DNA of 64,000 nucleotides from assembly GCA_050015455.1 (NCBI GenBank), contig JBEKBJ010000009.1, forward strand, positions 8,508 through 72,507. The letters run 5' to 3'. The stretch is from Candidatus Binatia bacterium (GTDB lineage Bacteria > Desulfobacterota > Binatia > HRBIN30). Below the pieces are notes generated by a model. It was not told the origin of the DNA and did not search any database. It worked only from the letters and a program-made list of their open reading frames with translations. Every line of letters begins with the position of its first letter. Positions within the stretch are counted from its first letter, which is position 1. The translations under genes were made by a program, and so were the position numbers. Below, in pieces: positions 6,313 to 33,062 of the stretch.

Positions 6313-6368
6313 AACGGATGCGTCGGCAAGATGATCAGACGAATTACCACCCCGCTACAGGAGGGAAT

Positions 6369-7595
6369 ATGAGCATGGATAGGGTAGCATTCGCACCAGG
6401 ACCGCACGCGTACGTCTCGATTAGGCCATTCCTTGTCGCGGTGCTCGCACTGGTGATAGGTTCGGTTGCCGGCGAAGCTCAGCAGGTTCCCACTCTGTCG
6501 GTGGGGAATGGAACCGGGGGCTCGGGCGGCAGCGTGCCGATCGTAATCGGCATCAGTGACGTAACCGGACAGAACGTCGGATCCGCCACCGTTGACGTCC
6601 TCTTCGATAATACGAATCTCATCCTCGCGAACCCGGCGCAGGACTGCGTTCCGAGCGTGGGTAGCGATTTCAGCGCGTCGGCAAGCATTGCAACGACCCC
6701 GGCGCCACCGGCGGGAGAAAGTCGGCTGCGCCTTGGCGTATTCAATATCAAATTCGGTTCCACCCAGACGGTTGAGGACGGGCCGCTGTTCACATGCACC
6801 TTTCAGATTTCGCCCGGAGTGACTCCTCCTGCGAGCTTCACGCTGACCCCAGATCCGGATTCGCCCGAGACTCAAGTTGCGCAAATCGGAGGCGCCGTTC
6901 TTTGCAGCGGCCCGCAGACGCCTTGTGATACCACGCCTGGCCAGATCACGGTGGCTGAGGCCACGGTGACGCCAACGCCCGTGACAACGTGCGTCTACCA
7001 GAGTGACTGTCCGGGGCTGATCTGCCAAAGCGGGGTATGCACCGTGGTCCCATGTACCACGACCGCGGACTGCCCGATCGGCATATGCTCCAACAATAAT
7101 GTGTGCACGGGCCAGCCTTGCAACACCAGCGGTGATTGCCCGCCGAGTCAGGTCTGCCTCAACCAGGTGTGTTCGCAGGTGCAGTGCACCAATGGTACCG
7201 GGTGTCCCTCCGACGCGATCTGCCTCGATGGGACTTGTGTTGCAGCCCCCGCACCAACAGCGACCGAGACGCCGACCTTGATACCGACGAGCACTTCGCT
7301 GCCGACGGGCACGCCGACTCCGCTGCCGACGGGCACGCCGACTCCGCTGCCGACGAATACGCCGACTCCGCTGCCGACGAATACGCCGACTCCCACCGCG
7401 TCACAGACCGCGACGGCCACGCCGAGAGCCACCGACACGGCCTCGCCGGTGCCGAGCGCGACGAACACGGGCGTAGTGCCGGCGCCAAGCTCCGCCGATA
7501 ATGATGGGTGCAACATGTCGCAGTCGGGCTCAGGGGGCGCGCTGCTGTGGTTGCTGGTCCCTGCCGCTCTCATGGTGTACCGCCGGCGAAGGTAG
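6369..7595 (+). CDS. Cell-surface 'anchor' protein: signal peptide, cohesin-like domain, Cys-rich mini-modules, Pro/Thr linker and a C-terminal MYXO-CTERM-like sorting signal
   Basis: The track ORF 6303..7595 overlaps the upstream gene by 10 nt. I take ATG 6369 as the start, preceded by CAGGAGGGAAT. The N-terminal region (VPTLSVGNGTGGSGGSVPIVIGISDVTGQNVGSATVDVLFDNTNLIL) fits a cohesin-like pattern. Repeated CxxxxxCPxGxCxxxxC modules follow, then the PTGTPTPL linker. The protein ends DGCNMSQSGSGGALLWLLVPAALMVYRRRR*. Confidence 0.7.
   Translation: MSMDRVAFAPGPHAYVSIRPFLVAVLALVIGSVAGEAQQVPTLSVGNGTGGSGGSVPIVIGISDVTGQNVGSATVDVLFDNTNLILANPAQDCVPSVGSDFSASASIATTPAPPAGESRLRLGVFNIKFGSTQTVEDGPLFTCTFQISPGVTPPASFTLTPDPDSPETQVAQIGGAVLCSGPQTPCDTTPGQITVAEATVTPTPVTTCVYQSDCPGLICQSGVCTVVPCTTTADCPIGICSNNNVCTGQPCNTSGDCPPSQVCLNQVCSQVQCTNGTGCPSDAICLDGTCVAAPAPTATETPTLIPTSTSLPTGTPTPLPTGTPTPLPTNTPTPLPTNTPTPTASQTATATPRATDTASPVPSATNTGVVPAPSSADNDGCNMSQSGSGGALLWLLVPAALMVYRRRR
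6486..6960 (+). other. Cohesin-like domain of the anchor protein
   Basis: Motifs as described for the anchor protein; assigned by eye. Confidence 0.4.
7303..7398 (+). repeat. Four 24-bp tandem repeats encoding the P-T-G/N-T-P-T-P-L linker
   Basis: Four units of gccgacg(g/a)(g/a)(c/t)acgccgactccgct are visible in the sequence. Confidence 0.8.
7488..7595 (+). other. MYXO-CTERM-like C-terminal sorting/anchor signal (GC motif, hydrophobic helix, RRRR, stop)
   Basis: The tail has a conserved Gly-Cys, an ~18-residue hydrophobic stretch (ALLWLLVPAALMVY) and four terminal Arg. From memory this matches the MYXO-CTERM (TIGR03901-type) architecture. Confidence 0.55.
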
Positions 7596-9362: not shown

Positions 9363-9466
9363 TGCGCGCACTTAGGTGGTGCGGAGAGCAGCCCGGCCCC
9401 TGAGTGTTGGGACGAAGGCACTAGGAGCCAGTGAGCAGGGAAGGTCGACTGGAAAGGAGGAGGGCA

Positions 9467-10612
9467 ATGCGAACGGTGAAGTGGAACGCTTTACTCTCAT
9501 GCCTCTGCGGACTCGCGGTGGTGTTGGGAGGCGTGGCGGTTAGCGCTCGAGCTGACGTCACGACGGAAAAGGGGGCATCGATCCTCATCTTTCCCAAGGT
9601 GCGCGCCGACGGCACGTTCGATACCATCATTCAAATTGCGAACACCAGTAACAGCATGAGGTATCTACAGTGCTTCTACGTGAACGCGTCCTTGCTGGAC
9701 TCGCTCACGCATTTGCCGTGCACGGTCCCCAGCGCCACCTGCGTACCGCAGTGCCAGGAGACGGATTTCACCATTTGGCTCACTAAGCAGCAGCCAACAC
9801 ATTGGAGCGTGAGCGAAGGCCGCTATTTCAATCCCAATGCGGGATTCGGCACTTATGATTCGGGCTTCGTGCCTGGTCACATCCCGCCGGTGACCGACTT
9901 CGTCGGCGAGCTGAAGTGCATCGAGGTGGATGCTTCCGGCAATCCGTCCATCTCCAACAGTCTAAAGGGTGAGGCCACCCTCGTCTCGCTTGTGACCGGG
10001 GGGGGCAGTACCTTGAGCTCTAATCTCACCGCTGAAGGCGATGTCGCCAAGTATAACGCGATCGGCATCCAAGGTAACCCGGACGTCGCGCCGGTGAATC
10101 CGCTCTTGCTCGACGGGGGCGCGACGTACAATGCCTGTCCAGCCAAGCTGATCTTGAACCACTTCACCAGTGGCGCGCCCGACATTGTCGTGAGCGAGCT
10201 CACTACCGATACGTCGGCAGAGTTCACCGACTTGACGCTGGTGCCGTGCAACGAAGACTTCGAGAATCAAATCCCGAAATCGGTGACCGTGCAGTTCCTC
10301 GTTTACAATGAGTTCGAAGAGAGATACTCGACGAGCATCACAGTCTCTTGCTTTTTGGAGACCGAACTTGCCAACATCGGCCAGGTGTTCACATACGGGT
10401 TTCTCGGCACGGAGGTGGCGCAGGCCATCATCACTCCGGTCGTGCAGGCCGATGGCTCTTCCGGCGGCCTGGTAGGCATCGCGGAACGGATCACCACTGT
10501 TGAGGTAGCGTCGCCGGCGACGGCGGCACGTGCGGCGTACAACCTGCACAGCGAAGGCAGCTTCATTCCTCCGATTGGGCCGGACCAGATCACGCTGCCG
10601 GCAGAGCAGTGA
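9467..10612 (+). CDS. Secreted Cys-containing protein of an unrecognised family (paralog A of a tandem pair)
   Basis: The start MRTVKWN follows GAAAGGAGGAGGGCA. A signal peptide ends ...AVSARA. Blocks shared with paralog B include FPK, CFYV, ETDF..LT..QP..W.VS.G, GELKC.EV, LKGEAT, YNA.GIQ, YN.CP..LIL.HF, LTLVPC.EDF and VQ(F/Y)LVYNEFE.R(Y/F)STS....CF.E. Confidence 0.7.
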   Translation: MRTVKWNALLSCLCGLAVVLGGVAVSARADVTTEKGASILIFPKVRADGTFDTIIQIANTSNSMRYLQCFYVNASLLDSLTHLPCTVPSATCVPQCQETDFTIWLTKQQPTHWSVSEGRYFNPNAGFGTYDSGFVPGHIPPVTDFVGELKCIEVDASGNPSISNSLKGEATLVSLVTGGGSTLSSNLTAEGDVAKYNAIGIQGNPDVAPVNPLLLDGGATYNACPAKLILNHFTSGAPDIVVSELTTDTSAEFTDLTLVPCNEDFENQIPKSVTVQFLVYNEFEERYSTSITVSCFLETELANIGQVFTYGFLGTEVAQAIITPVVQADGSSGGLVGIAERITTVEVASPATAARAAYNLHSEGSFIPPIGPDQITLPAEQ

Positions 10613-10684
10613 TCGCTGGCACAGAGGCAAAGAGGGGAAAAGGCAGTGGCTGGTTTCTCCCTGATAGGTGAAAGGAGAAGGGCA

Positions 10685-11971
10685 ATGCGTACGGTGAAGT
10701 GGAATCCTTTTCTCTCGGGTGTAGCGATGCTCCTGGGAGGGGTGCTCCTATGGGCGGGTGCTGCGCACGCCGATATCTCGTCGACTAACCCGGCGGCGAT
10801 CGTGGTGTTCCCGAAAATAGTGGTCGATACGGGCGCTGTGATATCGGACGCGAAAATCGACACCGTCATTCAACTGACCAATACCGCCCCCCAGGCGGTG
10901 AACGTGCGGTGCTTCTACGTCGACGCCAACGGGCACTGCTCGAACGCCCCGACTGCATTCTGCGATCCGGGCCAGCCGGCGAGCGACTACTGTAGCAGCC
11001 CCGGCTATTGCATACCGGGCTGGGTGGAGACTGATTTCTCTTTCCAGCTGACGGCCAATCAGCCGCTCGTGTGGACAGTGTCTGCAGGCTTGGCCGGCGG
11101 AGACTTTCCACTCGCCTCGTTGCCAGGTATAGGCGGTGAGCTCAACACCGGCAGCATCCCGCAGGCGGCTGAGGATCCGATGCTCGGCGAGCTGAAATGC
11201 GTCGAGGTCGGCGATGACGAGATGCCGGTCGATACGAACGACCTCAAGGGCGAAGCGACAATAGAGCTCCTGACCGGGGTAAATATCGACATCGAGGGCT
11301 ACAACGCCGTCGGCATCCAGGCGATCCCAGGGAGCTGCAGCGGCGACTCCTCGATATCGTGCACCGCCGATACGGACTGCCAGCCGCCGGCAACGAGTGC
11401 TGATGACACGCCGTGCATACACGTGAACAATTTTGACAACACTCTGGTGATCGGCGGGCCGAACGCGGAGTACAACGGTTGCCCGAACACCCTCATCCTT
11501 GACCACTTCTTCGATGACGCGCCGGTGCTTGGGAGCAACGTCGATACGTGGCTCACGTTGGTGCCGTGCTCGGAGGACTTCTTCACACAGACCTGCGTCA
11601 CAACCACCGTGCAGTATCTGGTGTACAATGAATTCGAGCAGCGCTTCTCGACCAGCCGGCCGCTGACGTGCTTTAGCGAGTTGCAGCTTTCGGACATCGA
11701 TACGCGTCTTGGCAACGACCCGCCGAACAACTACACCTCGATCTTCAATGTCAATGTTGAGGGGACGCTGACGGGGCAGACGGTTATCCGTGGTGTCGCC
11801 GATTCCGACCCTACCATAACGCCTGGACACGGTCTGCTCGGGGTCGTACATGAGTTCCACCAGCTGAACGGCGGATCGGCCCCCGTCTTCTCCGCTGCGT
11901 ATATGCTGGATCTGAGTGGCTCACGGACGCAGGCCGACATCGTGCTGATGCCGCCGCCTTCGCCACAGTAA
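10685..11971 (+). CDS. Secreted Cys-rich protein of an unrecognised family (paralog B, with inserted Cys-rich loops)
   Basis: The start context (GAAAGGAGAAGGGCAATGCGTACGGTGAAGTGGAA) is nearly identical to paralog A at the nucleotide level. A signal peptide is present, and the conserved blocks are the same as in paralog A. Confidence 0.7.
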   Translation: MRTVKWNPFLSGVAMLLGGVLLWAGAAHADISSTNPAAIVVFPKIVVDTGAVISDAKIDTVIQLTNTAPQAVNVRCFYVDANGHCSNAPTAFCDPGQPASDYCSSPGYCIPGWVETDFSFQLTANQPLVWTVSAGLAGGDFPLASLPGIGGELNTGSIPQAAEDPMLGELKCVEVGDDEMPVDTNDLKGEATIELLTGVNIDIEGYNAVGIQAIPGSCSGDSSISCTADTDCQPPATSADDTPCIHVNNFDNTLVIGGPNAEYNGCPNTLILDHFFDDAPVLGSNVDTWLTLVPCSEDFFTQTCVTTTVQYLVYNEFEQRFSTSRPLTCFSELQLSDIDTRLGNDPPNNYTSIFNVNVEGTLTGQTVIRGVADSDPTITPGHGLLGVVHEFHQLNGGSAPVFSAAYMLDLSGSRTQADIVLMPPPSPQ

Positions 11972-19787: not shown

Positions 19788-20996
19788 TTGTTGGAGGTCG
19801 AAAAAAGGCAATACCGCTTCCCTGCGATTTACTTTGAAGCCACGCGGTTGTGCAACCTGCAGTGTTCCGTGTGCATGTCCGCGAGCAACGACGCGGAGCG
19901 CGTGCGCGCCAGTCGCAGGCAGGAATTGAGCTTCGAAGAGATCCGCGATCTGGTGCTCATACCCGCCAAGCGCCTCGGCGTGCTGGCCATCGGCTGGAGC
20001 GGCGGCGAGTTCCTGCTGCGCAAGGATGCCTTCGACCTCTTTCGGCTGACCATCGACCTGGGCTACCAGTGCAAGCTGTGCAGCAACGGTGAGCTGCTGA
20101 CGCGCGATGTCTTGCTGCAGATCAAAGAGGCCACTGGCGGGCGGGTGACCATCGCCCTTGGCCTGAATTCCATCGATGAACACAACGTCTGGAGCCGCGA
20201 CGCGGCGCCGGACCGCACGCTGGAAGTGTTGGATCTCTGTGACGAGCTGAAGATCGACCGCCACGTCATCATCACCATCGGTAAACACAACGCCGAGAGC
20301 TTCGAACGCACGGTGAAATACCTGGTGGATCGCCACATCTCCTACAACCGCTCGCCGCTGGTGGCCCGCGGGTCGGGCTGCGATGCCTTCATGGAGAAGG
20401 CCTTCGATCGAAAGGATCTGGAGGCAAAATTTCACCCGGCGCTGCGCCGGCATGTCAACGGCTACGTGAGCTACACGCCGTTCTTTCTCTCGCCGGAGCT
20501 GCACACCGAGGTCTCGGGCGGCGTGCGCAACGGTGCCGTGCCGCACAACCCGCCGATAGGCTGCTGGGTGGGCACGTGGCTGACGTTGAACGCCGAGGGT
20601 GACGTCTCGGTGTGCCCGGTGCTGCTCGACGTGCTCTCAGCCGGCAACGTGCGCGAGAAGCCGCTCGATCGCCTGGTCAACGAAAGCGAGCTTTTCGCCA
20701 CCATTCTCGACCGCAGCCAGCTCAAGGGGCGCTGCGGCCGCTGCCGCTACCAATACACCTGCGGCGGATGCCGGGCCATGGCCTACTTCCACACCGGCGA
20801 TTACATGGCCGACGACCCAACCTGCTTCTTCGACCCGGTCGACAAGACCACGGTCAGCGAGCACGAGGAAGAGACCAACCGCTTCTTCAAGAAATACCTG
20901 ATGATCGCCCGTTACGTCGGGCTGTATCAGCGGCCCGAGCGGAAACCGGCCCACCTATCCGAGCGTGCGGAGGAGCGCCCCGGCCTCAACTCGTAG
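19788..20996 (+). CDS. Radical SAM enzyme with a C-terminal SPASM (auxiliary Fe-S) domain; peptide-maturase-like
   Basis: The CNLQCSVC motif (CX3CX2C) lies near the N-terminus, and a C-terminal Cys cluster CPVL...CGRCRYQYTCGGCRAMAY...DPTCFFDP is typical of SPASM. Confidence 0.8.
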   Translation: MLEVEKRQYRFPAIYFEATRLCNLQCSVCMSASNDAERVRASRRQELSFEEIRDLVLIPAKRLGVLAIGWSGGEFLLRKDAFDLFRLTIDLGYQCKLCSNGELLTRDVLLQIKEATGGRVTIALGLNSIDEHNVWSRDAAPDRTLEVLDLCDELKIDRHVIITIGKHNAESFERTVKYLVDRHISYNRSPLVARGSGCDAFMEKAFDRKDLEAKFHPALRRHVNGYVSYTPFFLSPELHTEVSGGVRNGAVPHNPPIGCWVGTWLTLNAEGDVSVCPVLLDVLSAGNVREKPLDRLVNESELFATILDRSQLKGRCGRCRYQYTCGGCRAMAYFHTGDYMADDPTCFFDPVDKTTVSEHEEETNRFFKKYLMIARYVGLYQRPERKPAHLSERAEERPGLNS

Positions 20997-21250
20997 CGGC
21001 GCAGCATGCTGCGCCGCTGGCGTTTGGACGTTATCAGGCTATATTCTGCTGAAGTGCCCAGAATATGGCGACGGAGCCCAATCGTGCGGCGCGACCAAAT
21101 CGCCCAGGGCAGCGCCCTGGGCTGATGGCTGGCGCCCCTTTGCGGCTTGCTTTTCTGGAGCCCTGAAAGGGCGGAGAGTCATGAGCCCCGGGCAACGCCC
21201 GGGGTGGCCCGGAAATCATTCCCGGCTCTGCCGGAGAAAGGGACATAACC

Positions 21251-21967
21251 ATGAGTGACACCATCCTAATTACGTGGCTCGGGCACGCGACCTTCCGCAT
21301 CCAGAGTGCGAACGGCAAGATGCTGCTGATCGATCCATGGATCCGCGGCAATCCGGCCTGTCCGGACGCCGAGAAACAGACTGGGCCGCTCGACGCCATG
21401 CTCATCACGCACGGCCATTTCGATCACATCAGCGATGCCGTCGAAACCGCACGCGAAGCGAAGCCACACGCAGTTGTGGCGATTTACGAGACCACGGCCT
21501 GGCTCGAGCGCAAAGGCGTCGAGAACTGCGTCGGAATGAACAAGGGCGGCACGGTCGAGGTGGCGCCCGGCATTTCCGCCACCATGGTCTATGCCGATCA
21601 TTCGTGCGGCATCTTGGACGACGGCCAGATCATCTACGGCGGCGACCCGTGCGGCTACGTCATCGAGTTCGAAAACGGGAAACGCGTCTACCACGCCGGC
21701 GATACCAACGTCTTCGGCGACATGAAGCTCATCCGCGAGCTCTATCGGCCCGACATTGCCCTGCTGCCGATCGGCGGGCTCTACACCATGTCGCCACGCG
21801 AGGCGGCGCTGGCGGTCAAGCTGCTCGGCGTCAAGCGCGTCATCCCCATGCACCACGGCACCTTCCCAGCGCTCACCGGCACGCCGGAAGGGCTGCGTGC
21901 GGCAACCAAGGGGATTCACGGGTTGAAAATCGTCGACTTGAAACCCGGCGAGTCGACCGAGTTGTGA
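21251..21967 (+). CDS. MBL-fold metal-dependent hydrolase (UPF0173 family)
   Basis: The motifs ITWLGHATFRIQ...LLIDPW...HGHFDHISD match the beta-lactamase-fold HxHxDH pattern. Confidence 0.8.
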   Translation: MSDTILITWLGHATFRIQSANGKMLLIDPWIRGNPACPDAEKQTGPLDAMLITHGHFDHISDAVETAREAKPHAVVAIYETTAWLERKGVENCVGMNKGGTVEVAPGISATMVYADHSCGILDDGQIIYGGDPCGYVIEFENGKRVYHAGDTNVFGDMKLIRELYRPDIALLPIGGLYTMSPREAALAVKLLGVKRVIPMHHGTFPALTGTPEGLRAATKGIHGLKIVDLKPGESTEL

Positions 21968-22082
21968 AGACTCTCTCCGCAACGCCGTCCGCTGCTGCTC
22001 CCTCCAGATCGAGCGTAAGCATCAAGGCCTTCTCGAAGCTCATCGAACTTCTCCCGGACGGGCAAGGGACAGGCCTGTCGCG

Positions 22083-22490
22083 CTAGCGGGTATGGTCGGT
22101 CAATCGAGCAGTGACCCTCTCCACCCAGTGCCGCAGCAGTGCGGCGTGCTGGGGTAAGCGCCCCGCGATTTCCTCCGCCAAGTCTTCGTTATAGGTGTGC
22201 ACGGTCAGGTTGCGATCGTCGGCCATGGCCAGTGCGAGGCGCGTCTCGTCTTCGTCGAGAATCCCGACCTCCAGCGACGCCCGAGCTACGCCCTTGGGTG
22301 AACCGAGATCGAGGCCTTCCACTTCCCGGAGGTAAAGCTGAACCGCCTTCCAGACAGCCTCGAAAGTGTACTCGAAACGTTGGATCGCTGCATCCCGCTC
22401 GACCTTTGACCGCTCCCGTTTGTGCGCCAGCTCATCGAGCGTGGAGAGGACCTCGCGGGCCGTGGCGACGCGTTGGGTCAATCGTTCCAC
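22083..22490 (-). CDS. hepT: HepT-like HEPN toxin (nucleotidyltransferase substrate-binding protein, HI0074 family)
   Basis: At 135 aa with QRFEYTFEAVWKAVQLYL and a C-terminal RNLTVHTYNE R-x4-HxY motif, it matches HEPN/HepT toxins. It overlaps the upstream MNT gene by 13 nt. Confidence 0.75.
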   Translation of the reverse strand: MERLTQRVATAREVLSTLDELAHKRERSKVERDAAIQRFEYTFEAVWKAVQLYLREVEGLDLGSPKGVARASLEVGILDEDETRLALAMADDRNLTVHTYNEDLAEEIAGRLPQHAALLRHWVERVTARLTDHTR

Positions 22491-22756
22491 GGAATGCCCT
22501 CAGCCAGAATTCTACGGCGAAACGCCTCACTGACGGTTGAAAGGTCGATGACCTCGACCCGGTACGGGATGTCACTCTCTTCCAGCGCCTCACGCAGACG
22601 GGCCAGCGTCCCCGGAATCAGCGGGGCCTCCGGTAACACCGCCACGTCGATGTCTGAAGTGCGGCGCGCGTCGCCGCGCGCGCGTGATCCGAACAGAAAC
22701 AGCCGGGCGCGTTGCGGCGCAAGAAACTTCACGACGATCCGCCGCGCCGCCTCCAC
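22478..22756 (-). CDS. mntA: MNT (minimal nucleotidyltransferase) antitoxin partner of HepT
   Basis: The GS-x9-DxD motif LFLFGSRARGDARRTSDIDVAV is present. Only the C-terminal ~92 codons of the 407-aa track ORF are plausible, starting at GTG 22756. Confidence 0.6.
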   Translation of the reverse strand: MEAARRIVVKFLAPQRARLFLFGSRARGDARRTSDIDVAVLPEAPLIPGTLARLREALEESDIPYRVEVIDLSTVSEAFRRRILAEGIPWND

Positions 22757-22821
22757 ATCGTCGCGTTCGCCGCCCGTGTGTGCGTAGGCCACAGCGGCAG
22801 TATTAGTCCTGACCACACAGC

Positions 22822-23100
22822 CGGTCAACGGCTGCCGCGCGCCCCGTGCCGCGGCGCTAGAGTTCCTGGCTTTTACCTTGTCAATGGCATAGAAGGGTGT
22901 CCTCGTTTCCAACGGCCCGAACGGCCATGACCTGCGAACCACGGTGGAGACGCCGCCATTCGACCACACGGAAGAGTCGACGGTCCCGGCGTCGCTTCCC
23001 AGGGTCGCGCTGTTGCGATGGGAGGAGGAACGATGACGCACACGCGTAGGTGTCTGACGGGCGAAGAGAGTAACCCCGGAAGGTGGCGGGTGGCACTCGC
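22822..23100 (+). repeat. Copy 1 of a duplicated ~270-bp leader (promoter/5'UTR plus first ~25 codons) preceding a dockerin-cargo gene
   Basis: About 90% identical to 29305..29567. Contains CTGGCTTTTACCTTGTCAA, a GGAGG RBS and the conserved N-terminus [13 protein letters not shown](N/K)PGRWRVALA. Confidence 0.8.
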
Positions 23101-26065
23101 AGCGCTGGTTGCATTGCCGATTTGCACGGCGGCCATGGGCGTTGCTGACACCGCAAGCCTCAACATCAGCCCGTGCGTCGTGGGCACCGGCACGGGGGCG
23201 AGCTGCACCGAGACCGCGCTGAATGCCTGCCTCCCAGGCGGCGGGAGTTTCGACGGCACCGTGACCTTCAACTGCGGTGGCGCCGCCACGATTACTGTCA
23301 CCAGCACCAAGAACATTAGCGCCGATACCACCATTGATGGCGGGAGTCTGATCACGATCAGCGGCGACAGCGGCGGCGGCATCTACAACTCCTCGGGCAC
23401 GGTCACCGTCACCAACACTATCGTTGCCAATAGCACCTCGGGCGGCAATTGCGGCGGCAGCGTTCCTGTCACTGATGGCGGCCACAACATCGACGACGGC
23501 CCGACGTGCGGTTTCACGGGCACAGGCTGTACCGCCACGACCGGCACCTCGTTCTGTAACACCAACCCTGTTCTCGACCCCACCGGGTTCCAGAACAACG
23601 GCGGGCCGACGCAAACCATCGCGCTCCAGGCGGGCAGCCCGGCGTTCAACGCTGGCAATGAGTCCGTGTGCGCGGCACCGCCCGTGAACAGCCTCGACCA
23701 ACGCGGCTACGTCCGGCCCGGTACGGGCGCAACAAGCTGCTCCATCGGCGCGTACGAGTACAACTCTGGAATCTCATGCGGCTCGGGCGCGTGTGTATTT
23801 CCCCAGGTGTGTGTTGTTGGTCAGTGCGCCACCCCGGCACCGACTCAGACGCCGACGAGTATGCCGACGCAAACGGCAACCAATACCCCGGTGGTGACCA
23901 ACACTCCGGTGGTGCCGACTGCCACCCCGGTAGCCACCAACACCCCGCAGACCGGCTCGACCAACACGCCGACCACGTGCGGCAGTGCCACCAACTACAC
24001 CGTTGGAACCAATCCGCATGGCGTGGCCGTGGGCGACTTCAACGGCGACAAAAAACTCGACCTCGCCGTGACAAACGAGGGCTCCAACAACGTCTCCATC
24101 CTGCTCGGCAACGGCGACGGCACCTTCGGGACGGCCACCAACTACAACGTTGGAACCGATCCGCATGGCGTGGCCGTGCGCGACTTCAACGGCGACGGGA
24201 AACTCGACCTCGCCGCGGCCAACAACGGCTCCAACAACGTCTCCATCCTGCTCGGCAACGGCGACGGCACCTTCGGGACGGCCACCAACTACAGCGTTGG
24301 AACCAATCCGAATGGCGTGGCCGTGCGCGACTTCAACGGCGACGGGAAGCTCGACCTCGCCGTGACAAACAACGGCTCCAACAACGTCTCCATCCTGCTC
24401 GGCAACGGCGATGGCACCTTCGGGACGGCCACCAACTACAACGTTGGAACCAATCCGCATGGCGTGGCCGTGGGCGACTTCAACGGCGACGGGAAGCTCG
24501 ACCTCGCCGCGGTAAACAACGGCTCCAACAACGTCTCCATCCTGCTCGGCAACGGCGACGGCACCTTCGGGACAGCCACCAACTACAACGTTGGAACCAA
24601 TCCGCATGGCGTGGCCGTGGGCGACTTCAACGGCGACGGGAAGCTCGACCTCGCCACGGCAAACAACGGCTCCAACAACGTCTCCATCCTGCTCGGCAAC
24701 GGCGACGGCACCTTCGGGACGGCCACCAACTACAACGTTGGAACCAGTCCGTTCAGCGTGGCCGTGGGCGACTTCAACGGCGACGGGAAGCTCGACCTCG
24801 CCGCGGCAAACAACGGCTCCAACAACATCTCCATCCTGCTCGGCAACGGCGACGGCACCTTCGGGACGGCCACCAACTACAACGTTGGAACCAATCCGCG
24901 TGGCGTGGCCGTGGGCGACTTCAACGGCGACGGGAGGCCCGACATCGCCGTGGCAAACAACGGCTCCAACAACGTCTCCGTGGGGCTCAATTTGGTCTGT
25001 ACTACGGCAACCCCGACGTTTCCCACCAGCTCGCCGACCAACACGCCTACCAACACCACGGCGCCCACGGTTACGCCGACGTTGGCAAGTACGCCCACTC
25101 AGACTCCGACGCCAACGAACACGCCGAGCGCGACGCCGACACAGACGCTAAGCGCCACCAGCCCCCCTACGTCGACGCCGGCGGTAACGGCCACCAGCGC
25201 GACCGCCACGCCAACTCAGACGCCGACGAGCATGCCGACGTCAACCGCGACCAATACCACGACGACCACACCCACCAACACGGGAACGGCTACACCGACT
25301 GGCACTCCCACAGCGACCCCCTTGCCCCTTGTCGTCAGAGGGACCTGCATGGAACCTAGCTCACAGGGCCTCGCCCCCTGCACTGCCGGCACGGTGGTTA
25401 CTGCCTACCTGTGCACGGACCCAAGCTGCGCGGCGTCGACGCTGATCACACTCGAAGTGACTCAAACGGATGCGAATGGACAGTTCGTCTTCGTTCTCAG
25501 CCGCGGGCAGGTCGCGGGCAAGCGGCTGGTCTTTGACGCCACCATCGTACAGGCCGGAGGTGCCCTGACAACCAGGGGCCGCGCGGCCAGCGACACCACC
25601 GTCGATCTACAAACCATCGATTTCGGTCCCATTGGAGCGGCGACGAATTTGAGTGAGCTGATCGATCTGACATCGGAGGCCGCGGTGCAGCTGGTGGACG
25701 ACAACGGGGGGGCGCAGCACTACAGCGATCAGGGCATCAAGGATATCATCCAAGCCGTGCGAACAGCCGACAGCGGCATCAACTTCGCTGGCTTGACCGC
25801 GGCCGCCGCGGTTACCCTGGCGACCGAGACGGCAGGCAACGATCCCGCGGTACAAGCCGCGCTGCAGATGAAGTTGTGCACCGGCGATTGCAACGGCGAC
25901 GGCACGGTGACGGTTGATGAGATTCTCACCATGGTGAACATCGCCCTCGGCATTGAGGATGTCTCCACCTGCCTCCCCGGGGATGCGAACAATGACAAGA
26001 TGATTACCGTCGATGAGATCCTCACGGCCGTGAACGACGCGCTGAACGGGTGCGCGCCCTCCTGA
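23033..26065 (+). CDS. Secreted cargo protein: parallel beta-helix (choice-of-anchor-Q-like) domain, P/T linker, seven-bladed FG-GAP beta-propeller, P/T linker, unknown domain and a C-terminal dockerin
   Basis: A Tat-like/signal N-terminus (TRRCL..., [17 protein letters not shown]) is present. The beta-helix domain ends with [10 protein letters not shown]...CSIGAYEY. Seven 49-aa repeats of the form [47 protein letters not shown] show the FG-GAP Ca-binding motif. The C-terminal dockerin is [25 protein letters not shown]...[28 protein letters not shown]. The track ORF starts at 23018. Confidence 0.75.
23988..25016 (+). repeat. Seven near-identical 147-bp tandem repeats encoding the FG-GAP propeller blades
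   Basis: The 147-bp period is directly visible; it reads caccaactaca(a/c)cgttggaacc...ggcaccttcgggacggc, with only a few substitutions per unit. Confidence 0.9.
25877..26062 (+). other. Dockerin module (two Ca-binding loops) at the C-terminus of the beta-helix/FG-GAP protein
   Basis: [12 protein letters not shown] and [12 protein letters not shown] loops are each followed by a hydrophobic helix ([10 protein letters not shown] / [11 protein letters not shown]). Cys residues bracket the module. Confidence 0.6.
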
Positions 26066-26208
26066 TTATTTTCGGTCGTCGCCTTTCACCCACAATCCCG
26101 ACCACCACCCCAGGGCCCTCGGCGACAATTACACCAGCGGCGAGCAGGTTGCATCGTACCGGCAACCTGCGCCACAATCGCCGGCCGCAAGATTGAGACG
26201 AGTGCGCA

Positions 26209-27921
26209 GTGCCTGCTGACCAGCATACCATCAACGATAGCGATCGGGTTCCCGCCGGCATTCTCTTCGGCGACATGAAGGGTTCGACCGAGGAGGCCGA
26301 GCTCGACGAGAAGTCCACAATCGTCAAGCTGCGCGAGTACGAACGCATCATCAACGAGATCGCCAATCGCTTCGGGCCGAACTTCTACAAGGTCAAGACC
26401 GAGGGCGACGGCTTCATGGCGACCTTTGCCAGCGCGCACATCATGGTGGCGTGCGGCCTCGCCGTACAGCAGGAGTTTTGCCGCCGCGGCTGGCAGGTCC
26501 GCCTGGGAGGACACTACGGCGAAGTGTTTCGCAACAAACAGGGCGACGCCTTCGGAGCCGACGTCAATCGCGCCGCCCGCATCATGTCCGCCGCGGACGC
26601 GACCTCGGGCGAGTTCCTGGTGTCGGACGCCGTGCAAGTGATCGTGCGCGACCGACTACCGGACGCGCATTTCGAGCCGCACGAACCGATCCTCGCCAAG
26701 GGCGTCGGCAGCCTGGTCGTCTTCGCGGCCGTCGCCACCGGCCAACCCTCGCGGCCACCGGTGAGCCCGCACGTGGGAGCGGCAAGCGCGAAACCCGGCA
26801 GGCTTCCGCCGCCTCCGCCGCGGCGCAATCGGCCCCGAATCGGCCCGGCCGCTGCCTTCACCGTCCTGCTGATGCTCGCCGGACTGGCTGGGGGCGTGTG
26901 GTATTGGCGCGGCATGGCACGGAAGACGCTGCCGCAGAACATCGGCGATCGCAGCGGCAAACCAACGGATGTGATGAGGCCGATCGCGGTCATGGAATTC
27001 GAGAATCAGCGTGCGGACGATTCGAAGGACGACTGGTACGCCAAGGCGCTGCAAGCCGCGTTCAACACCGAGCTGAGTAAGATCCCGACGCTGCCGGTGG
27101 TCGCTCCCGAGCTGATTCAGCAAGTCGCGAAGGAAACCAGCCTCGATCGCATGGCAGCGGCCAAGAAACTGGGGGTCACCCGGTTCGTGACCGGTTCGTT
27201 TGCGGTGGTCGGCGACTCCATCCGCATCGACGCGCGCATCGTCCAAACGACCACCGGCATCCAGGAGGCGGCGGAAAACATCGAAGGGCGTCAAGACGAG
27301 TTCTTCGCCCTGCAGAAAAGCCTTACCCTGGCCACGCTCGAACACTTTCGGGTCCGACTCACCAAGAGCGAAGCCGAGTCGTTCAAGCAAACGACCAACT
27401 CGCGTCTCGACAAGTACAAGATGCTGCTGGACGCCGAAGGCGTGACGAAGGGCAAGAGCGGCGGTGAACCGGAAACCAAGGCGTCCGATGCCCAGGCCTT
27501 TGGCAGTGCCGGGAGAGAAGTCATCGGAACCTTCGCCGCCGCGCGCGTGTGGTCGTGGGTGCTCCCAGCGCCGGCGGTCGCATTGGCGCAGGCGCCGCTG
27601 GAAGCCGCCGCGCGCGAGGTCCTTGAGGAGTATCGCCGTGCGCACGAGCGCGGCGACCTCGATCAGCTCGCGAGCCTGTATGTCAACTTCCCGGCTGCTC
27701 AGCGACAGAAAATCGATGCGTATTTGAAGGGGATCACTGACCTGCACGTGGAGCTGGCCGACGTGAAGATCCAGCCGCGGGAGCACGACATCGCCGTTTC
27801 CTATATCCGGCGCGACAAATTCGTCGACAAAGAAACGGGCGAACCCGTCACCCTCGAAGTGCGCCTCACCAAGTTCCTGGTGCAGGATGGCGCCAAGTGG
27901 AAGTTCGCCGAGGGATCGTGA
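26209..27921 (+). CDS. Class III adenylate/guanylate cyclase with one TM helix, a periplasmic-type domain and a C-terminal NTF2/SnoaL-like domain
   Basis: The cyclase motifs FGDMKGST, KTEGDGFMATF and VNRAARI are present. The TM helix is AAAFTVLLMLAGLAGGVWYW. The C-terminal ~120 aa show an NTF2-like pattern (LEEYRRAHERGDLDQLASLY...). Confidence 0.75.
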   Translation: MPADQHTINDSDRVPAGILFGDMKGSTEEAELDEKSTIVKLREYERIINEIANRFGPNFYKVKTEGDGFMATFASAHIMVACGLAVQQEFCRRGWQVRLGGHYGEVFRNKQGDAFGADVNRAARIMSAADATSGEFLVSDAVQVIVRDRLPDAHFEPHEPILAKGVGSLVVFAAVATGQPSRPPVSPHVGAASAKPGRLPPPPPRRNRPRIGPAAAFTVLLMLAGLAGGVWYWRGMARKTLPQNIGDRSGKPTDVMRPIAVMEFENQRADDSKDDWYAKALQAAFNTELSKIPTLPVVAPELIQQVAKETSLDRMAAAKKLGVTRFVTGSFAVVGDSIRIDARIVQTTTGIQEAAENIEGRQDEFFALQKSLTLATLEHFRVRLTKSEAESFKQTTNSRLDKYKMLLDAEGVTKGKSGGEPETKASDAQAFGSAGREVIGTFAAARVWSWVLPAPAVALAQAPLEAAAREVLEEYRRAHERGDLDQLASLYVNFPAAQRQKIDAYLKGITDLHVELADVKIQPREHDIAVSYIRRDKFVDKETGEPVTLEVRLTKFLVQDGAKWKFAEGS

Positions 27922-28017
27922 GATGTCGCGTGCGTGGCGTTTGCTGAACCGACCCTTGTCATGAGCAAGGTGGCCGGCGGTCATCGGCGCGCGATAGAAG
28001 TAAGGGGGCGGGAGAAC

Positions 28018-29304
28018 ATGCCGAACCGGTGTCGAGGATACTGGCTTGTGGTATCCATGGCGGCTCTTGTCTTGTTCGGGTTGCCGCTCAGTGTAGTGCC
28101 GCGAGCCAACGCCGCCGGGAATTCCAACCAGTTCGGTGGCCAAGATCGCGCCGCGGCCGCGGCGCAGATGATCGTGCTCGGCGTCCAGCAGGGCATTTCG
28201 TCCCTGCCGCCGACCTCGGGCCAGTCGTTTGCGTACCAATTCGATCCGGCGTCGGACACCTACGTCCGCAGTGAGCAGTTGGGACCGACCTCGTTCCGCT
28301 CGCCGCAGACCGTCGGGCCCGGGAAGTTCAGCTTCCGCTTGGCGACGTCCTACTTCGAGCTCGCGGACACCAAGGCGCCGATCCCTTACCTCGTGAGTTC
28401 GCCGCCCGGCACCGCGCTCGGGGTCGGCGCTTTGGGCCTGCAGGCGGATGCGAAAGTGGCGCTCGTCAACCTCTCCGCCAACTACGGCTTTACCAACCGC
28501 GTCGAAGTGACGATGAACCTGCCGGTCGTCGTCGTCGATGCAAGCGCCAAGCAGATCTTCAGCACCAGCCAGCCCACCGGGCCGCCGCAGCAGGCGCCGT
28601 TCAGTGGAACTCCCATCGTGACGGATTCTACGGGCAAGCCAGATCTGGCGGCGAGCGTCGGGTTGCTGAACCAAGCCATTCAGGCCGGTGCCCTCCATCT
28701 GCGCAAAGAATCATTGAGTGCTCTGGGCTTCAGCTTCAACGATGGCACCCACGTCGGCGTCGGGCGCATTAGCCTAGGTGTGAAGGGTGTGCTCTACGCT
28801 GACAAGATCGTCCAGCTCGCCGCCGCTCCCGAGTTCTACTTCCCCAGTCCCAACCAGGGCGAGTTTGCGGGCTCGGACAGTGCGGCGATCCTGCCGCGCC
28901 TGGTGGCGGCGTTCAGGTTGGCCGATGCCGTCAGGTTGCACATCGACGCCGGGTACGACTACGACTTCGACAAGGACGAGCTGCGGCGGTTCGTGTGGAA
29001 TCTCGGGCCGTCGCTGGCACTGGGCCGGGCGACCGTGGATGCCGGGGTGGGGGGCTCGAAGTTCAATACCGGGATCAAATGGACCCCGACCACCGCGCCC
29101 TTTGTCGACAACTCAGGCAACCCCGGCTCGATTCGGGCGTTGGGCGACAACCGGCTGGGCAGCAACTTCATCGACGCGCTGGGCGCGGTGAAGGTGCGGC
29201 TGGGGACCAAGTCGGTGCTCAGCGGAGCCGTCAACGTCCCGTTGAACAACGAAGGCTTCCGCGCCGCCGCCGTCGGCACGCTGGCGGTCGAGCTGCATTT
29301 GTAG
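28018..29304 (+). CDS. Secreted protein of unknown function, possibly an outer-membrane beta-barrel
   Basis: ATG 28018 follows TAAGGGGGCGGGAG. The signal peptide is LVVSMAALVLFGLPLSVVPRANA. Alternating hydrophobic beta-strand-like segments run to the C-terminus (...AVGTLAVELHL). Confidence 0.5.
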   Translation: MPNRCRGYWLVVSMAALVLFGLPLSVVPRANAAGNSNQFGGQDRAAAAAQMIVLGVQQGISSLPPTSGQSFAYQFDPASDTYVRSEQLGPTSFRSPQTVGPGKFSFRLATSYFELADTKAPIPYLVSSPPGTALGVGALGLQADAKVALVNLSANYGFTNRVEVTMNLPVVVVDASAKQIFSTSQPTGPPQQAPFSGTPIVTDSTGKPDLAASVGLLNQAIQAGALHLRKESLSALGFSFNDGTHVGVGRISLGVKGVLYADKIVQLAAAPEFYFPSPNQGEFAGSDSAAILPRLVAAFRLADAVRLHIDAGYDYDFDKDELRRFVWNLGPSLALGRATVDAGVGGSKFNTGIKWTPTTAPFVDNSGNPGSIRALGDNRLGSNFIDALGAVKVRLGTKSVLSGAVNVPLNNEGFRAAAVGTLAVELHL

Positions 29305-29567
29305 ACCACGGCCGACGCGCGCCCCGTGCCGCGGCGGTAGAGTTCCTGGCTTTTACCTTGTCAACGGCATAGAAGCGTCCTGGTTTCCGACGGCCCAAAC
29401 GGCCATGACCTGCGAACCACGGTGGAGACGCCCACACGAAAGAGTCGACGATCCCGGCGTCGCTTCCCAGGGTCGCACTGTTGCGATGGGAGGGCGAACG
29501 ATGACGCACACGCGCAGGTGTCTCACGGGTGAAGAGAGCAAACCCGGAAGGTGGCGGGTGGCGCTCG
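29305..29567 (+). repeat. Copy 2 of the duplicated ~270-bp leader preceding the second dockerin-cargo gene
   Basis: Aligns with 22822..23100 with a few substitutions and one ~12-bp indel. Confidence 0.8.
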
Positions 29568-30927
29568 CCGGTCTCGGTATGACGGGGGACGGGTTTGCTC
29601 AAGCCGACGTCAGTCTCGTCTTTGGAGACCCAACTGCTTTCCCCGTCGCCGCCACCGCGGCGCCCGAGGCAAGCGGCAGCGCGGCTTTCGATGGAACGAA
29701 CTTTCTCGTCGGCATTCAGACGCAAACTACAGTTGGCGCGCAGCTCGTGTCGCCAGCGGGTGTGACGCTCGGTCCTCTGATCACAACCAATCGCAGCGGT
29801 AATGAGCCGGTGCTCGCTTTCAATGGGACCAATTACCTGTTGGCATGGGCGACGCTCGATGCAAGTCCCTTTGCCTACGGGCAGTTGGTGAGTCCGTCGG
29901 GAACTACCGTCGGCTCCCCGTTTCAAATCAGCCAATCCAACACCGTCATCCTTACCGGAGTGCAATGGTCGTTGGGCGGCATTGCCTCGGACGGGACGAA
30001 CTACCTGGTGGTGTGGACCGATTCACGGCTTTCCCCGGACAAATATATCTACGGGCGCGTGGTTGCGGACTCCGGGAGCCCCGTCGGAAGCGACATCATG
30101 ATCAGCGAGAGCCCCGGCGCGGAAGCCCAAGTCGCCTTCGACGGCAACAACTACCTCGTCGTCTGGCACGGCGAAGACTCCAACAGCTCCTTGGTGATGG
30201 GAAGATTCATGGACCGAGCGGGGGCACTGGTTAGCGCCGAATTCGTTGTGAAAAATGGCCCGGCTCCGAGCGACAATCCCAACGCCGTCGCGTTCGGCCG
30301 AACCAACTACCTTGTGGTGTGGCCGGACGAGGTGGACTCGAGCAGCCACCAGTGGAACATTTTCGGGCAATTGGTGACGCCTTCCGGCGCCCTCACCGGA
30401 GAGGTGCTCCAGATCACCAGCGAGCCCGGGGAGCAGTTTTACCCAACCCTCGCCTTCGACGGTCGCAACTACCTGGCGACCTGGACGAACTTTACGTGCA
30501 ACGTGTCTGCGGGCGAGACGTGCGGAGATGTGCACGGCCAATACCTGAGTCAGTGCGGCACGCCGATAGGCGCTGCATTCCCATAGGCGCGGGAGCTGGC
30601 ACCCAAATGATCTCGCCGGTGGCGTTCGGTGCCGGTCAGTACCTGGTGGTGTGGAATAGTGATGCCACCATCAGCCACAGCGGGATCACCGGCGGCGATG
30701 TGTACGGGACGTTCCTCGCGCCGGTGCCACTGGCCTGCGCCGGTGACTGCGGCGGCGACGGCCAAGTCACCATCGATGACATCCTCACCATAGTGAACAT
30801 CGCGCTGGGCAACACCACCCTTTGCGCGTGCGAAGCGGGCGACGTCAATGGCGACGGCCAAATCACCGTCGATGAGATCCTGACGGCGGTGAACAACGCG
30901 CTCAACGGGTGCGTGCAAGGGCCGTGA
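29501..30927 (+). pseudogene. Dockerin-tagged repeat (propeller-like) protein interrupted by an apparent +1/-1 frameshift near 30,590. It is either a real pseudogene, a slippage site or a sequencing error.
   Basis: Frame 2 (29405..30586) carries ~50-aa repeats (VAFDG.NYLVVW ... GQLVSPSG..G). The same repeat and the dockerin continue in frame 1 (30598..30927: ISPVAFGAGQYLVVW ... DCGGDGQVTIDD ... DVNGDGQITVDE). At the junction there is an imperfect duplication CGATAGGCGCTGCATTC / CCATAGGCGCGGGAGCT. Confidence 0.5.
30736..30924 (+). other. Dockerin module at the C-terminus of the frameshifted repeat protein
   Basis: [59 protein letters not shown]. Confidence 0.6.
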
Positions 30928-31001
30928 GGAGTGAGGGCCTGAACACCTCACGCTGCGTGGCGGCGGCGCTCGAGCTTGCGCAGCCGTTTCTCGTGGTCCG
31001 C

Positions 31002-31544
31002 TCAGTCGCGGTCGGCGCGGGCGTAGTAGCGGCTGAACTCGGTCAAGAACGACAGCGATTCCATCGACCGCATGCGGTCAAGGAAGACCTTGCCGATCAG
31101 ATGATCGCATTCGTGCTGCACCACCCGGGCGTAGAAATCCTTGGCGACGTAATTGAGCTTGTTGCCGGCACGATCGTAAGCCTCGACGCGCACGAGCGTA
31201 TAGCGCGGCACTTTGCCGCGCAGGTCCGGAAGGCTCAGGCAACCCTCCCAGTCCTCGTCCGTGTGCTGTGACAGCGGCGTGATCTTCGGATTGATGAGCA
31301 CCGTCAGTGGAATGGTTTCCGCGTCCGGATAGCGTGGATTGCCGTCGACTTGAAAGGTCAGAATCTGCTGCGAGACATGCACCTGAGGCGCCGCCAATCC
31401 GGCACCGTCGTACTCGATCATGGTCTCGATCAAATCGTCGATGAAGCGCTGGACCTGTGGGGAGCCGATTGCTTCCGGCGGCACCGGTTCCGCCACCTTT
31501 CGCAATACGGGATTGCCCAAACGCGCAACCTTGAGAATGGCCAT
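31002..31544 (-). CDS. def: Peptide deformylase
   Basis: The motifs GAGLAAPQV, EGCLSLP and QHECDHL (metal-binding HExxH) are present. Confidence 0.9.
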   Translation of the reverse strand: MAILKVARLGNPVLRKVAEPVPPEAIGSPQVQRFIDDLIETMIEYDGAGLAAPQVHVSQQILTFQVDGNPRYPDAETIPLTVLINPKITPLSQHTDEDWEGCLSLPDLRGKVPRYTLVRVEAYDRAGNKLNYVAKDFYARVVQHECDHLIGKVFLDRMRSMESLSFLTEFSRYYARADRD

Positions 31545-31688
31545 CGGATAATCCCGTAGCGGAGCAGCAGGCAGTTTTCCAGGGTTTAGAGGGCAGCTTT
31601 CAGCTGTCAGCGTTCAGCTTTCAGCCAAGAGCATGGCTTACTCACCAGCTGGAGTAGGTTGCTGACAGCTGATCGCTGACGGCTGCCC

Positions 31689-33062
31689 CTACGCGTCTTC
31701 GGTCTCGCCGAAGCTGACGTCGTCCGGGGCAGCACGGCTCTCGAAGCGAGTATACTCCGAGATGAACGTCAGGGGTATCACGCCGGTCGGGCCGTTGCGT
31801 TGCTTCGCCAGGATCAGCTCCGCCTCACCTTCGTCGGCATTCTTGTCGTACACGATCGGGCGGTAGAGGAACCCGATCACGTCGGCGTCCTGCTCGATGG
31901 CGCCCGATTCGCGCAGGTCGGCCATGATCGGCCGCTTGTCGGCCCGCGTCTCGACCTGCCGGTTCAGCTGCGAGAGGGCGACGATGGGGACGTTGAGTTC
32001 CTTGGCCAGCGCCTTGAGCGAACGCGAGATGTTCGAAATCTCCTGCTCGCGGTTGTCCGCGCGCTCATGGCCGCGCATCAGCTGCAGATAGTCGACAATC
32101 ACCAGCCCGAGGTTCGCTTCACGTTCACGTTTCAAGCGCCGCGCCTTGGCGCGCAACTCGAGCGCGCTCAACCCCGGTGTGTCGTCGATGAAGATGTGCG
32201 ATTCGGAGAGCCGGCTGGCGGCCTTCGCCAGCTCCGGAAAAGCAGTGGCCGGGACGTAGCCTGTGCGCACCTTGGACTGGTCGACCCGGGCTTCGGAGCA
32301 CAGCATGCGCAACCCGAGCTGCTCCTTCGACATTTCGAGCGAGAAGAGGGCGACCCCTTGCTTGCCGGTGATGCCGACGTGCTGCGCGATGTTCAGCGCG
32401 AAGGCCGTCTTGCCCATGCTCGGCCGGCCCGCCACGATGATCAGGTCGGAGGGCTGCAGCCCGGCCGTCAACCGGTCGAGATCTTTGAAGCCGGTGGACA
32501 CACCGGTGACCAACTCCTTGCGTTCGTACATCTGCTCGATGGAACCCATGGTGCTAAGCATGATGTCGCGCAGATGAAAGAAGGCCGGCCGGATCCTGCG
32601 TTCGGAAATGGCGAAGATCTGCTGTTCCGCTTGGTCGAGGAACCCGTCGACGTCGGCGCCGGACTCGAACGCCCCGCGGGCGATCTCGGTGGCGGTATCG
32701 ATGAGGCTGCGCAGCACCGATTTCTGATGCACGATGCGGGAGTAGTAGGCGACGTTGGCAGACGTCGGTACCTTGTCTGCCAGCTCGGCGAGGTAGGCTG
32801 CGCCGCCGATCTCCTGCAACTCGCCGCGCCCCTTCAGTGCCTCGGCCAACGTGATCAGGTCTACCGGCTCGTTGCGCTGGTTGAGGTCGATCATGGCGCG
32901 CATGATCTTGCGGTGCGCTTCACGGTAGAAGTCTTCCGGCGAGAGAATCTCCAGCGCCCGGTCGAGCGAGTTGTTGTCGAGCAGCACCCCGCCCAAGACC
33001 GACTCCTCCGCTTCAATGCTCTGCGGCGGCAGTTTGCGCAAGGTTTCTTCGATGGCGTCCAT
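31689..33062 (-). CDS. dnaB: Replicative DNA helicase DnaB
   Basis: SIEAEESVLGGVLLDN is near the N-terminus, followed by the Walker A motif GRPSMGKTAFAL and the RecA-like C-terminal domain. I take ATG 33062 as the start; the track ORF starts at TTG 33083. Confidence 0.9.
   Translation of the reverse strand: MDAIEETLRKLPPQSIEAEESVLGGVLLDNNSLDRALEILSPEDFYREAHRKIMRAMIDLNQRNEPVDLITLAEALKGRGELQEIGGAAYLAELADKVPTSANVAYYSRIVHQKSVLRSLIDTATEIARGAFESGADVDGFLDQAEQQIFAISERRIRPAFFHLRDIMLSTMGSIEQMYERKELVTGVSTGFKDLDRLTAGLQPSDLIIVAGRPSMGKTAFALNIAQHVGITGKQGVALFSLEMSKEQLGLRMLCSEARVDQSKVRTGYVPATAFPELAKAASRLSESHIFIDDTPGLSALELRAKARRLKREREANLGLVIVDYLQLMRGHERADNREQEISNISRSLKALAKELNVPIVALSQLNRQVETRADKRPIMADLRESGAIEQDADVIGFLYRPIVYDKNADEGEAELILAKQRNGPTGVIPLTFISEYTRFESRAAPDDVSFGETEDA

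Follow-up and report, generated by a model that had tools for sequence, protein, structure and literature searches.

In a 64,000-nucleotide stretch of contig JBEKBJ010000009.1 from an uncultured Candidatus Binatia bacterium (GenBank assembly GCA_050015455.1; the whole stretch is called the window here), the open reading frame (ORF) at 23033-26065 on the forward strand encodes a protein of 1010 amino acids (aa), which we propose to be a Sec-exported binding protein that is tethered non-covalently to anchored scaffoldins by a Ca-dependent dockerin-cohesin contact. We regard this proposal as likely, if far from assured. The product would be a beads-on-a-string protein, in which a short choice-of-anchor-Q (CoA-Q) head and a Ca-binding FG-GAP propeller are the presumed ligand-binding modules, and in which long Thr/Pro linkers would set these modules apart from a C-terminal cassette, where a beta-sandwich and a helical region precede a duplicated F-hand clamped by disulfides. 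This last, dockerin-like module would bind a divergent cohesin in a Ca-dependent manner, the candidates being an anchor protein (6303-7595) and a dockerin-cohesin-dockerin (Doc-Coh-Doc) adaptor (3202-6312), and either partner would keep the binding modules on the cell surface or within a matrix. Binding, the pairing of cohesin and tail, surface localisation and an adhesin-like role are what we infer from these components, the adhesin role being suggested by the types of domain present. The protein is laid out as follows.

23033-23146, forward strand: predicted Sec signal peptide (aa 1-38), recognised by eye, with cleavage probably after GVA
23147-23770, forward strand: Cys-rich head (aa 39-246), with an N-cap, ~3 beta-helix rungs and a choice-of-anchor-Q C-terminal cap
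23777-23827, forward strand: four-Cys knot (aa 249-265), read from the sequence; absent from the earlier, sequence-only reading of this DNA
23828-23977, forward strand: Thr/Pro-rich linker 1 (aa 266-315), by composition; also absent from that reading
23978-25000, forward strand: seven FG-GAP blades (aa 316-656), from Pfam, repeat family D1, and a blade table and identity matrix
25001-25327, forward strand: Thr/Pro-rich linker 2 (aa 657-765), 83% Thr, Pro, Ser or Ala
25328-25588, forward strand: four-Cys beta-sandwich (aa 766-852), from AlphaFold2 model md52d752d3eff, with strands at model residues 12-98 and a predicted local distance difference test score (pLDDT) of 73-82
25667-25864, forward strand: helical region of four helices (aa 879-944), from AlphaFold2, directly 5' of the tail module
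25868-26062, forward strand: dockerin-like module (aa 946-1010), with two Ca loops, D952-E963 and D984-E995, and pLDDT >90

A dockerin calls for cohesin-bearing proteins in the same genome, and the sequence-only reading, which used no database searches, had already pointed to two cohesin-like domains in the window. These are carried by the following two proteins.

3202-6312, forward strand: putative adaptor of 1036 aa, with PD40 repeats, Cys knots and a Doc-Coh-Doc arrangement (subtype B dockerin-like module at 5281-5466, cohesin at ~5446-5985, second subtype B module at 6121-6309)
6303-7595, forward strand: putative anchoring scaffoldin, with a signal peptide, a cohesin at ~6480-6944, Cys knots, a Thr/Pro linker and a C-terminus of Cys, transmembrane (TM) helix and RRRR

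On their own, the two domains stay below the Pfam Cohesin (PF00963) cut-off of 24.1 bits, with scores of 21.5 and 17. A HMMER scan of 1.8 billion representatives, made with a two-sequence profile of the window domains, defined a cohesin family of 68 representative clusters, and Pfam Cohesin is matched by 47 of 69 sequences (the two window domains and 67 family members), the best at E 1.8e-13. When the family profile was compared with the PDB, it matched cohesins only (6kg8_A at E 3.1e-13, 6kgc_A at 9.4e-13 and 5nrk_A at 3.6e-8), and judging from these profiles we take the two window domains to be real but divergent cohesins. The putative anchor ends in ...DNDGCNMSQSGSGGALLWLLVPAALMVYRRRR, a tripartite layout of Cys, TM helix and Arg cluster that scores 15.1 bits on the MYXO-CTERM model, under the cut-off of 20; its Cys knots score 23.9 bits on Pfam DUF7107 (cut-off 24.6), and a Pfam scan of ORFs in the window brought up no CPBP protease. 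There is an overlap of 10 nucleotides (nt) between the ORF of this anchor and the stop of the gene before it, and homologues of the anchor carry one to three cohesins and the same ending. The adaptor contains PD40 (TolB-like) repeats and at least three Cys knots, and a Candidatus Binatia metagenome-assembled genome (MAG) encodes an identical protein, which is labelled hypothetical there. Its tails belong to a subtype B (GDCNQDGFV..NEI) whose identity with the cargo tails is no more than 43-48%, and the adaptor could either self-polymerise or bridge cargo to the anchor. Within the cohesin family, the Cys-TM-RRR ending is found in 14 proteins and the Ca-loop motif in 27 of 67, as a closely spaced pair in 16, and only two proteins have both anchor and loops. 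That the family divides in this way, into anchored scaffoldins on one side and adaptors with cohesin plus dockerin on the other, is the strongest evidence, albeit indirect, that the tail of the target may be a functional dockerin.

The tail itself contains two long helices (aa 961-971 and 993-1005), and Cys is conserved at four positions (949, 953, 980 and 1007). In the AlphaFold2 model it is predicted, with pLDDT >90, to fold as loop-helix, short linker helix and loop-helix, with no helix entering the loops, and this model fits the F-hand pair of a dockerin better than a four-helix EF-hand pair. The structural hallmark of dockerins, two tandem Ca loop-helix F-hand repeats without an entering helix, is therefore present in the model, the departure from it being a Glu at position 12 in place of the usual Asp. 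Tails of ~60 aa with 65-80% identity are found at the C-terminus of more than 100 unrelated proteins, and those that are named all belong to Binatia. The cargo that bears them includes matrixin, sialate O-acetylesterase, azurin-like, cytochrome c, Kazal, VanY, BNR and CoA-Q proteins. No membrane or sorting anchor is present in the target protein itself, which ends in the dockerin-like EF-hand pair, in line with the suggestion of the sequence-only reading that its localisation is left to a cohesin scaffold.

The rest of the architecture is largely as that reading had described it. The frame runs through 1010 codons and a stop with no internal stop, its GC content at third codon positions is 0.81, similar to adjacent genes, and the domain order is the one first read: choice-of-anchor Q, seven FG-GAP repeats, Thr/Pro-rich spacer, a further domain and a terminal module. 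The seven Ca-binding FG-GAP blades were borne out by Pfam, with FG-GAP_3 (PF13517, E 3e-78) and FG-GAP (PF01839, E 1e-41) each matching seven stretches; they correspond to seven units of 49 aa (317-659) that all contain a loop of the DFNGDGKLD type, and Cys316 and Cys656 bracket the blades. The CRTAC1 propeller (PDB 9ETN) gives a direct sequence match (E 1e-6), and bacterial homologues run into the thousands. FG-GAP proteins dominate the matches of a full-length homologue search, in which no full-length orthologue was found. The propeller is presented here as a prediction from sequence. The FG-GAP homologues were misplaced in the mixed MAFFT alignments A2 and A3 and were left out of them. Precomputed PF00404 labels on many FG-GAP proteins were set aside as evidence for dockerins, as the tail was absent in the four proteins that were read (P0001, P0002, P0039 and P0075, the last three of which carry the label). 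The Thr/Pro-rich spacer of the earlier reading corresponds to linker 2, and its ~200-aa unknown domain exists as a region but splits into the beta-sandwich and the helical region, which are separated by a disordered loop in the model of aa 755-1010 (mean pLDDT 77.9). A Foldseek search of the PDB with this model gave only weak matches to C2-like beta-sandwiches (TM-score <=0.39), and the fold class of the beta-sandwich therefore stays generic. The helical region is kept in several other tail-bearing proteins, with homologues that span aa 869-1010 and 913-1010. A scan of genome contigs with the C-terminal cassette found a single distant locus, with 37% identity over 81 aa.

The N-terminal head had been read as a beta-helix with a choice-of-anchor-Q cap, and of these it is the cap that is well founded in the target: the NCBIfam model choice_anch_Q (NF041518) matches aa 186-244 (23588-23764) with 60.7 bits (cut-off 25) and E 1.2e-16, and most of the 653 matches to the head are labelled 'choice-of-anchor Q domain-containing protein [Candidatus Binatia]'. 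The target head matches neither Pfam Beta_helix (PF13229) nor Chlam_PMP (PF02415), so that a check against both FG-GAP and beta-helix models succeeded for the former only, while among 22 homologue segments Chlam_PMP is matched by five and Beta_helix by three. Similarly, a profile of the head family matches the beta-helix domain of Rhombotarget A (RbtA; PDB 9cdu_A, X-ray) with E 8.9e-5, and the target head on its own gives no match to RbtA. In a close relative on contig L014, the head is 82-93% identical in DNA but has ~136 aa of extra PMP-like rungs; as these are absent from the target, the latter keeps only ~3 rungs and the caps, and its beta-helix is truncated relative to those of its relatives. 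The beta-helix assignment thus holds at the level of the family and is weak for the target protein itself. Between head and linker 1, the knot at aa 249-265 resembles by eye the Cys-knot repeats, matching Pfam DUF7107, of the two cohesin proteins.

Several results weigh against tethering through the tail, and one bears on the folds named above. The tail scores 14.4 bits on Dockerin_1 (PF00404; E 0.046), under the cut-off of 22.9, and better than that on EF-hand_1 (25.4-25.9 bits, cut-off 25.4), with 18.6-18.9 bits on the pair model EF-hand_7 (cut-off 30). Position 12 of its loops is Glu and not Asp. A profile of 29 tail sequences ranks EF-hand proteins of the PDB (E 0.002-0.004) above the dockerins 5nrk_B (0.038) and 6kge_D (0.075), and there is no dockerin among the top 50 PDB matches of the Foldseek search with the C-terminal model, which the beta-sandwich dominates. 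The cohesin genes lie 16-20 kb from the target and share no operon with it, and the target itself stands between a toxin-antitoxin-like pair upstream and a guanylate-cyclase-domain gene downstream. Finally, the structure prediction that was expected to return a beta-helix and a seven-bladed propeller did not do so: the AlphaFold2 model of aa 30-660 (23-row alignment) has a pLDDT of 46.7 and only periodic strand pairs, with aa 49-109 the only confident part within the head, and both folds are left unconfirmed by it. The claim of a terminal dockerin consequently stands as to the paired Ca loops and the F-hand model and falls short on the Dockerin_1 score, and by its sequence models, which are ambiguous, the tail is best described as a Cys-flanked EF-hand/dockerin-like pair. 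It could be, instead of a docking module, a structural or regulatory EF-hand pair that serves Ca-dependent folding, stability or oligomerisation outside the cell and has no cohesin partner, in which case the protein would be released or stuck in the matrix via other domains. Such a pair would account for the EF-hand_1 cut-off being reached where that of Dockerin_1 is missed, for EF-hand proteins being the best sequence matches in the PDB, and for the Glu at loop position 12, as in canonical EF-hands. However, the model shows no E-helix ahead of the first loop, the tail is a conserved and strictly C-terminal add-on to unrelated cargo, Ca-loop pairs recur within cohesin-family proteins, the cohesins are anchored, and a paralogous tail in the window (30730-30924) scores 27.5 bits on Dockerin_1, above its cut-off; the same model is matched at E<0.01 by 12 of the 29 family tails, the target tail not being one of them. 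We therefore think an EF-hand pair of this kind rather unlikely, though it has to be kept in mind. The strictly C-terminal position and the very high conservation over many cargo families and MAGs, together with four invariant Cys residues that suggest a folded recognition unit, could also be expected of a secretion or sorting signal for an export or outer-membrane translocation machine, comparable to the C-terminal domain of the type IX secretion system or a recognition module of the type II secretion system. This seems to us quite improbable, because the adaptor and a 1040-aa protein of L014 each have two tails, one of them at an internal position, which is unusual for a signal and typical of dockerins; furthermore, no dedicated machinery is encoded nearby, and the co-occurrence with cohesins would be left unexplained.

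A different kind of doubt concerns the assembly, in that the blade number, and possibly the short beta-helix, might come from mis-assembled near-identical repeats. The DNA of the blades is a 147-nt tandem repeat, in which blades 2-6 are 93-98% identical and differ by nonsynonymous and synonymous codon changes in a ratio of ~46:14, near the neutral expectation, which fits recent amplification or gene conversion. In a ~99%-identical strain (contig L006) there are three blades, and the gene is shorter by exactly 588 nt, or four units; other assemblies break within the repeat, where contig L005 stops and contig L002 starts. The difference in L006 reflects either a collapse in assembly or a real variation in copy number. 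The head, too, is without the ~136 aa of repeated rungs found in L014. In contrast, the gene with seven blades is 100% identical in a 76.8-kb contig from an independent assembly (L004), seven is the canonical number of blades for the FG-GAP propeller fold, the short head recurs in every assembly of this population, including that of L006, and the reading frame is open throughout. We thus see only a slim chance that the architecture is partly an artefact and, because of the identical copy in L004 and the canonical number, accept the count of seven blades, with the caveat that it was assembled through a near-identical 147-nt repeat.

If the tail of the target does dock to the window cohesins, as we favour, the arrangement may extend well beyond this gene. 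It is conceivable, although we advance it tentatively and with more doubt than confidence, that the cell surface of Binatia, presumably the outer membrane, carries a cohesin-dockerin system with a hierarchy like that of a cellulosome. Scaffoldins with MYXO-CTERM-like anchors would act in it together with Doc-Coh-Doc adaptors, and on them would be displayed dozens of proteins that bear a dockerin tag clamped by disulfides and are not active on carbohydrates, such as adhesin-like propellers, proteases, cupredoxins and cytochromes. In such a system, each of two subtypes of dockerin would have its partner among two subtypes of cohesin, and modules would be exchanged between cargo genes at the Thr/Pro linkers.

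A leader at the start of the target gene recurs at a second locus in the window.

22828-23110, forward strand: upstream leader and first 26 codons (~280 nt), from alignment; repeat families D3, D5 and D6
23020-23029, forward strand: Shine-Dalgarno-like GGGAGGAGGA, read from the sequence, strong, 3 nt 5' of the ATG at 23033
29498-30927, forward strand: second gene, which shares leader and tail with the target; a frame change divides it into 29498-30586 and 30607-30927

The ATG at 23033, from which the sequence-only reading had also taken the 1010-aa frame, was preferred over those at 23018 and 23135 because GGGAGGAGGA sits just upstream of it. A start at 23018 would fall within the Shine-Dalgarno site, and a start at 23135, which underlies a 976-aa call in a JGI assembly, would cut off the signal peptide; for the exact 1010-aa or 1015-aa protein no match was found on record. 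By eye, the N-terminus, which has basic residues, looks like a Sec signal, and the mature part of the homologues starts at an aligned ACVVGTGT motif. A lipoprotein signal was considered and rejected, LPIC being no canonical lipobox. A copy of the leader at 29308-29568, ~92% identical, precedes the second tail-bearing gene, an exact 25-mer of the leader is present in related metagenome contigs (L012-L014), and the first ~85 nt (~90% identical, with the exact 25-mer) lie in related contigs 5' of a different tail-bearing gene. The duplicated leader may be a shared promoter or 5' leader; an Rfam scan of 20000-32000 gave no match at it, and a sigma-70 scan found no promoter there on the forward strand. 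Behind the same leader, L014 encodes (1179-5672) a gene with a YVTN-propeller and a tail, followed by the 1040-aa protein, which has a full-length CoA-Q beta-helix, an internal tail, Cys-rich repeats of the type CGNG..E.CDG and a second, divergent tail. To judge from these sequences, the tail-bearing genes evidently evolve by module swapping. The second gene carries YLVVW-type repeats and the dockerin-like tail, and the hydrophobic region of its signal peptide looks truncated. In all assemblies seen it is split in the same way, into ORFs of 361 and 106 aa (in L006, 335 and 106 aa), and this could reflect either a pseudogene or a genuine arrangement of two genes.

The remainder of the window is housekeeping, with a few other features of note. 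Directly upstream of the target, on the reverse strand, 22083-22792 encodes an NTP_transf_2 nucleotidyltransferase and an NTase_sub_bind (HEPN-like) protein as a pair, likely a toxin-antitoxin module. Two tandem paralogous secreted Cys-rich proteins of 393 and 441 aa (9431-10612 and 10646-11971), whose genes have a 47-nt common start region (repeat D7), matched nothing in Pfam or NCBIfam. At 21103-21147 on the forward strand, between genes for a radical-SAM and a metallo-beta-lactamase-fold protein, the Acido-Lenti-1 small RNA model gives a sub-threshold score of 27.1 bits (cut-off 37, E 0.008). On the reverse strand, paralogous seven-transmembrane GAF histidine kinases (43604-45778 and 48211-50520) stand on either side of genes for a FeeM-like N-acyl amino acid synthase and ketosynthases, with an MMPL transporter gene and a second ketosynthase gene downstream, and this may be a lipid-signal or secondary-lipid locus.

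Docking by cohesins and dockerins is understood almost only in the cellulosomes of Gram-positive anaerobes, and the role of the many non-cellulosomal modules known by sequence is a question that still matters. The window offers a compact test case for it, with one anchored cohesin, one Doc-Coh-Doc adaptor and two cargo genes that share leader and tail, in a phylum without a cultured member. If the proposal is true, it would show how a bacterium arranges a large and diverse surface exoproteome, and the tail and cohesin would be a disulfide-stabilised docking pair of use in protein engineering. No paper was found that pairs Binatia or Binatota with dockerin. Cohesin- and dockerin-like modules are reportedly spread across bacteria and archaea, on proteins unrelated to cellulose degradation. 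Sequence surveys have recorded such non-cellulosomal modules since 2009. From the modules of Peer et al. 2009, the present case differs in that a single 64-kb window combines anchored cohesins, a Doc-Coh-Doc adaptor and a tail that is reused throughout the lineage.

The docking system predicted here works like that of cellulosomes. Binatia are presumably two-membraned. In the cellulosomal type I dockerin-cohesin pairs of Clostridium and Acetivibrio (PDB 5NRK, 6KGE and 1OHZ), as in the proteins described here, a C-terminal module of ~60 aa has two Ca-binding loop-helix repeats, the cohesin beta-sandwich is on separate anchored or adaptor proteins, Thr/Pro linkers are used, and adaptors combine cohesin with dockerin; the window family profiles match the PDB cohesins and, weakly, their dockerins. 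The differences begin with the host, an uncultured member of the Binatia here and Gram-positive anaerobes that degrade cellulose in the case of those pairs. The tail described here combines four conserved Cys residues with a Glu at position 12 and a sub-threshold PF00404 score, its cargo is not active on carbohydrates, a Cys/TM/Arg signal takes the place of an S-layer homology domain or a sortase signal as anchor, and the docking is predicted from sequence. The anchor itself is similar to the MYXO-CTERM/myxosortase system (TIGR03901; PMC11980579), in that the partner at 6303-7595 ends in an invariant Cys, a hydrophobic helix and an Arg cluster, whereas its score is below the cut-off of that model, the host is not a myxobacterium and the signal is on the partner and not on the target.

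The binding modules of the target can be compared in the same way. Seven FG-GAP repeats whose Ca loops follow the pattern Dx[DN]xDGxxD are shared with the group of integrin-alpha-type propellers and bacterial FG-GAP/VCBS proteins, of which CRTAC1 (PDB 9ETN) is one example and from which the target differs by the near identity of its blades in DNA and by its two bracketing Cys residues, its fold being read from sequence. For the head, the comparison is with a protein of Acinetobacter baumannii. As predicted for the target, the cell-surface protein RbtA of this species (PDB 9CDU/9CDV; PMC12643943) has a right-handed beta-helix that ends in a DQRG...C.[IL]GA.E cap and is followed by a separate localisation signal, whereas its beta-helix is ~440 aa long and the target has ~3 rungs and a dockerin-like tail. 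The cargo protein is an ordinary mosaic of known binding domains. Its tail sets it apart from RbtA, which uses a GlyGly-CTERM/rhombosortase signal. It is the docking system predicted around the cargo protein that differs from the cellulosomal pairs, in its host, in the chemistry of its tail, in its cargo and in its anchor.

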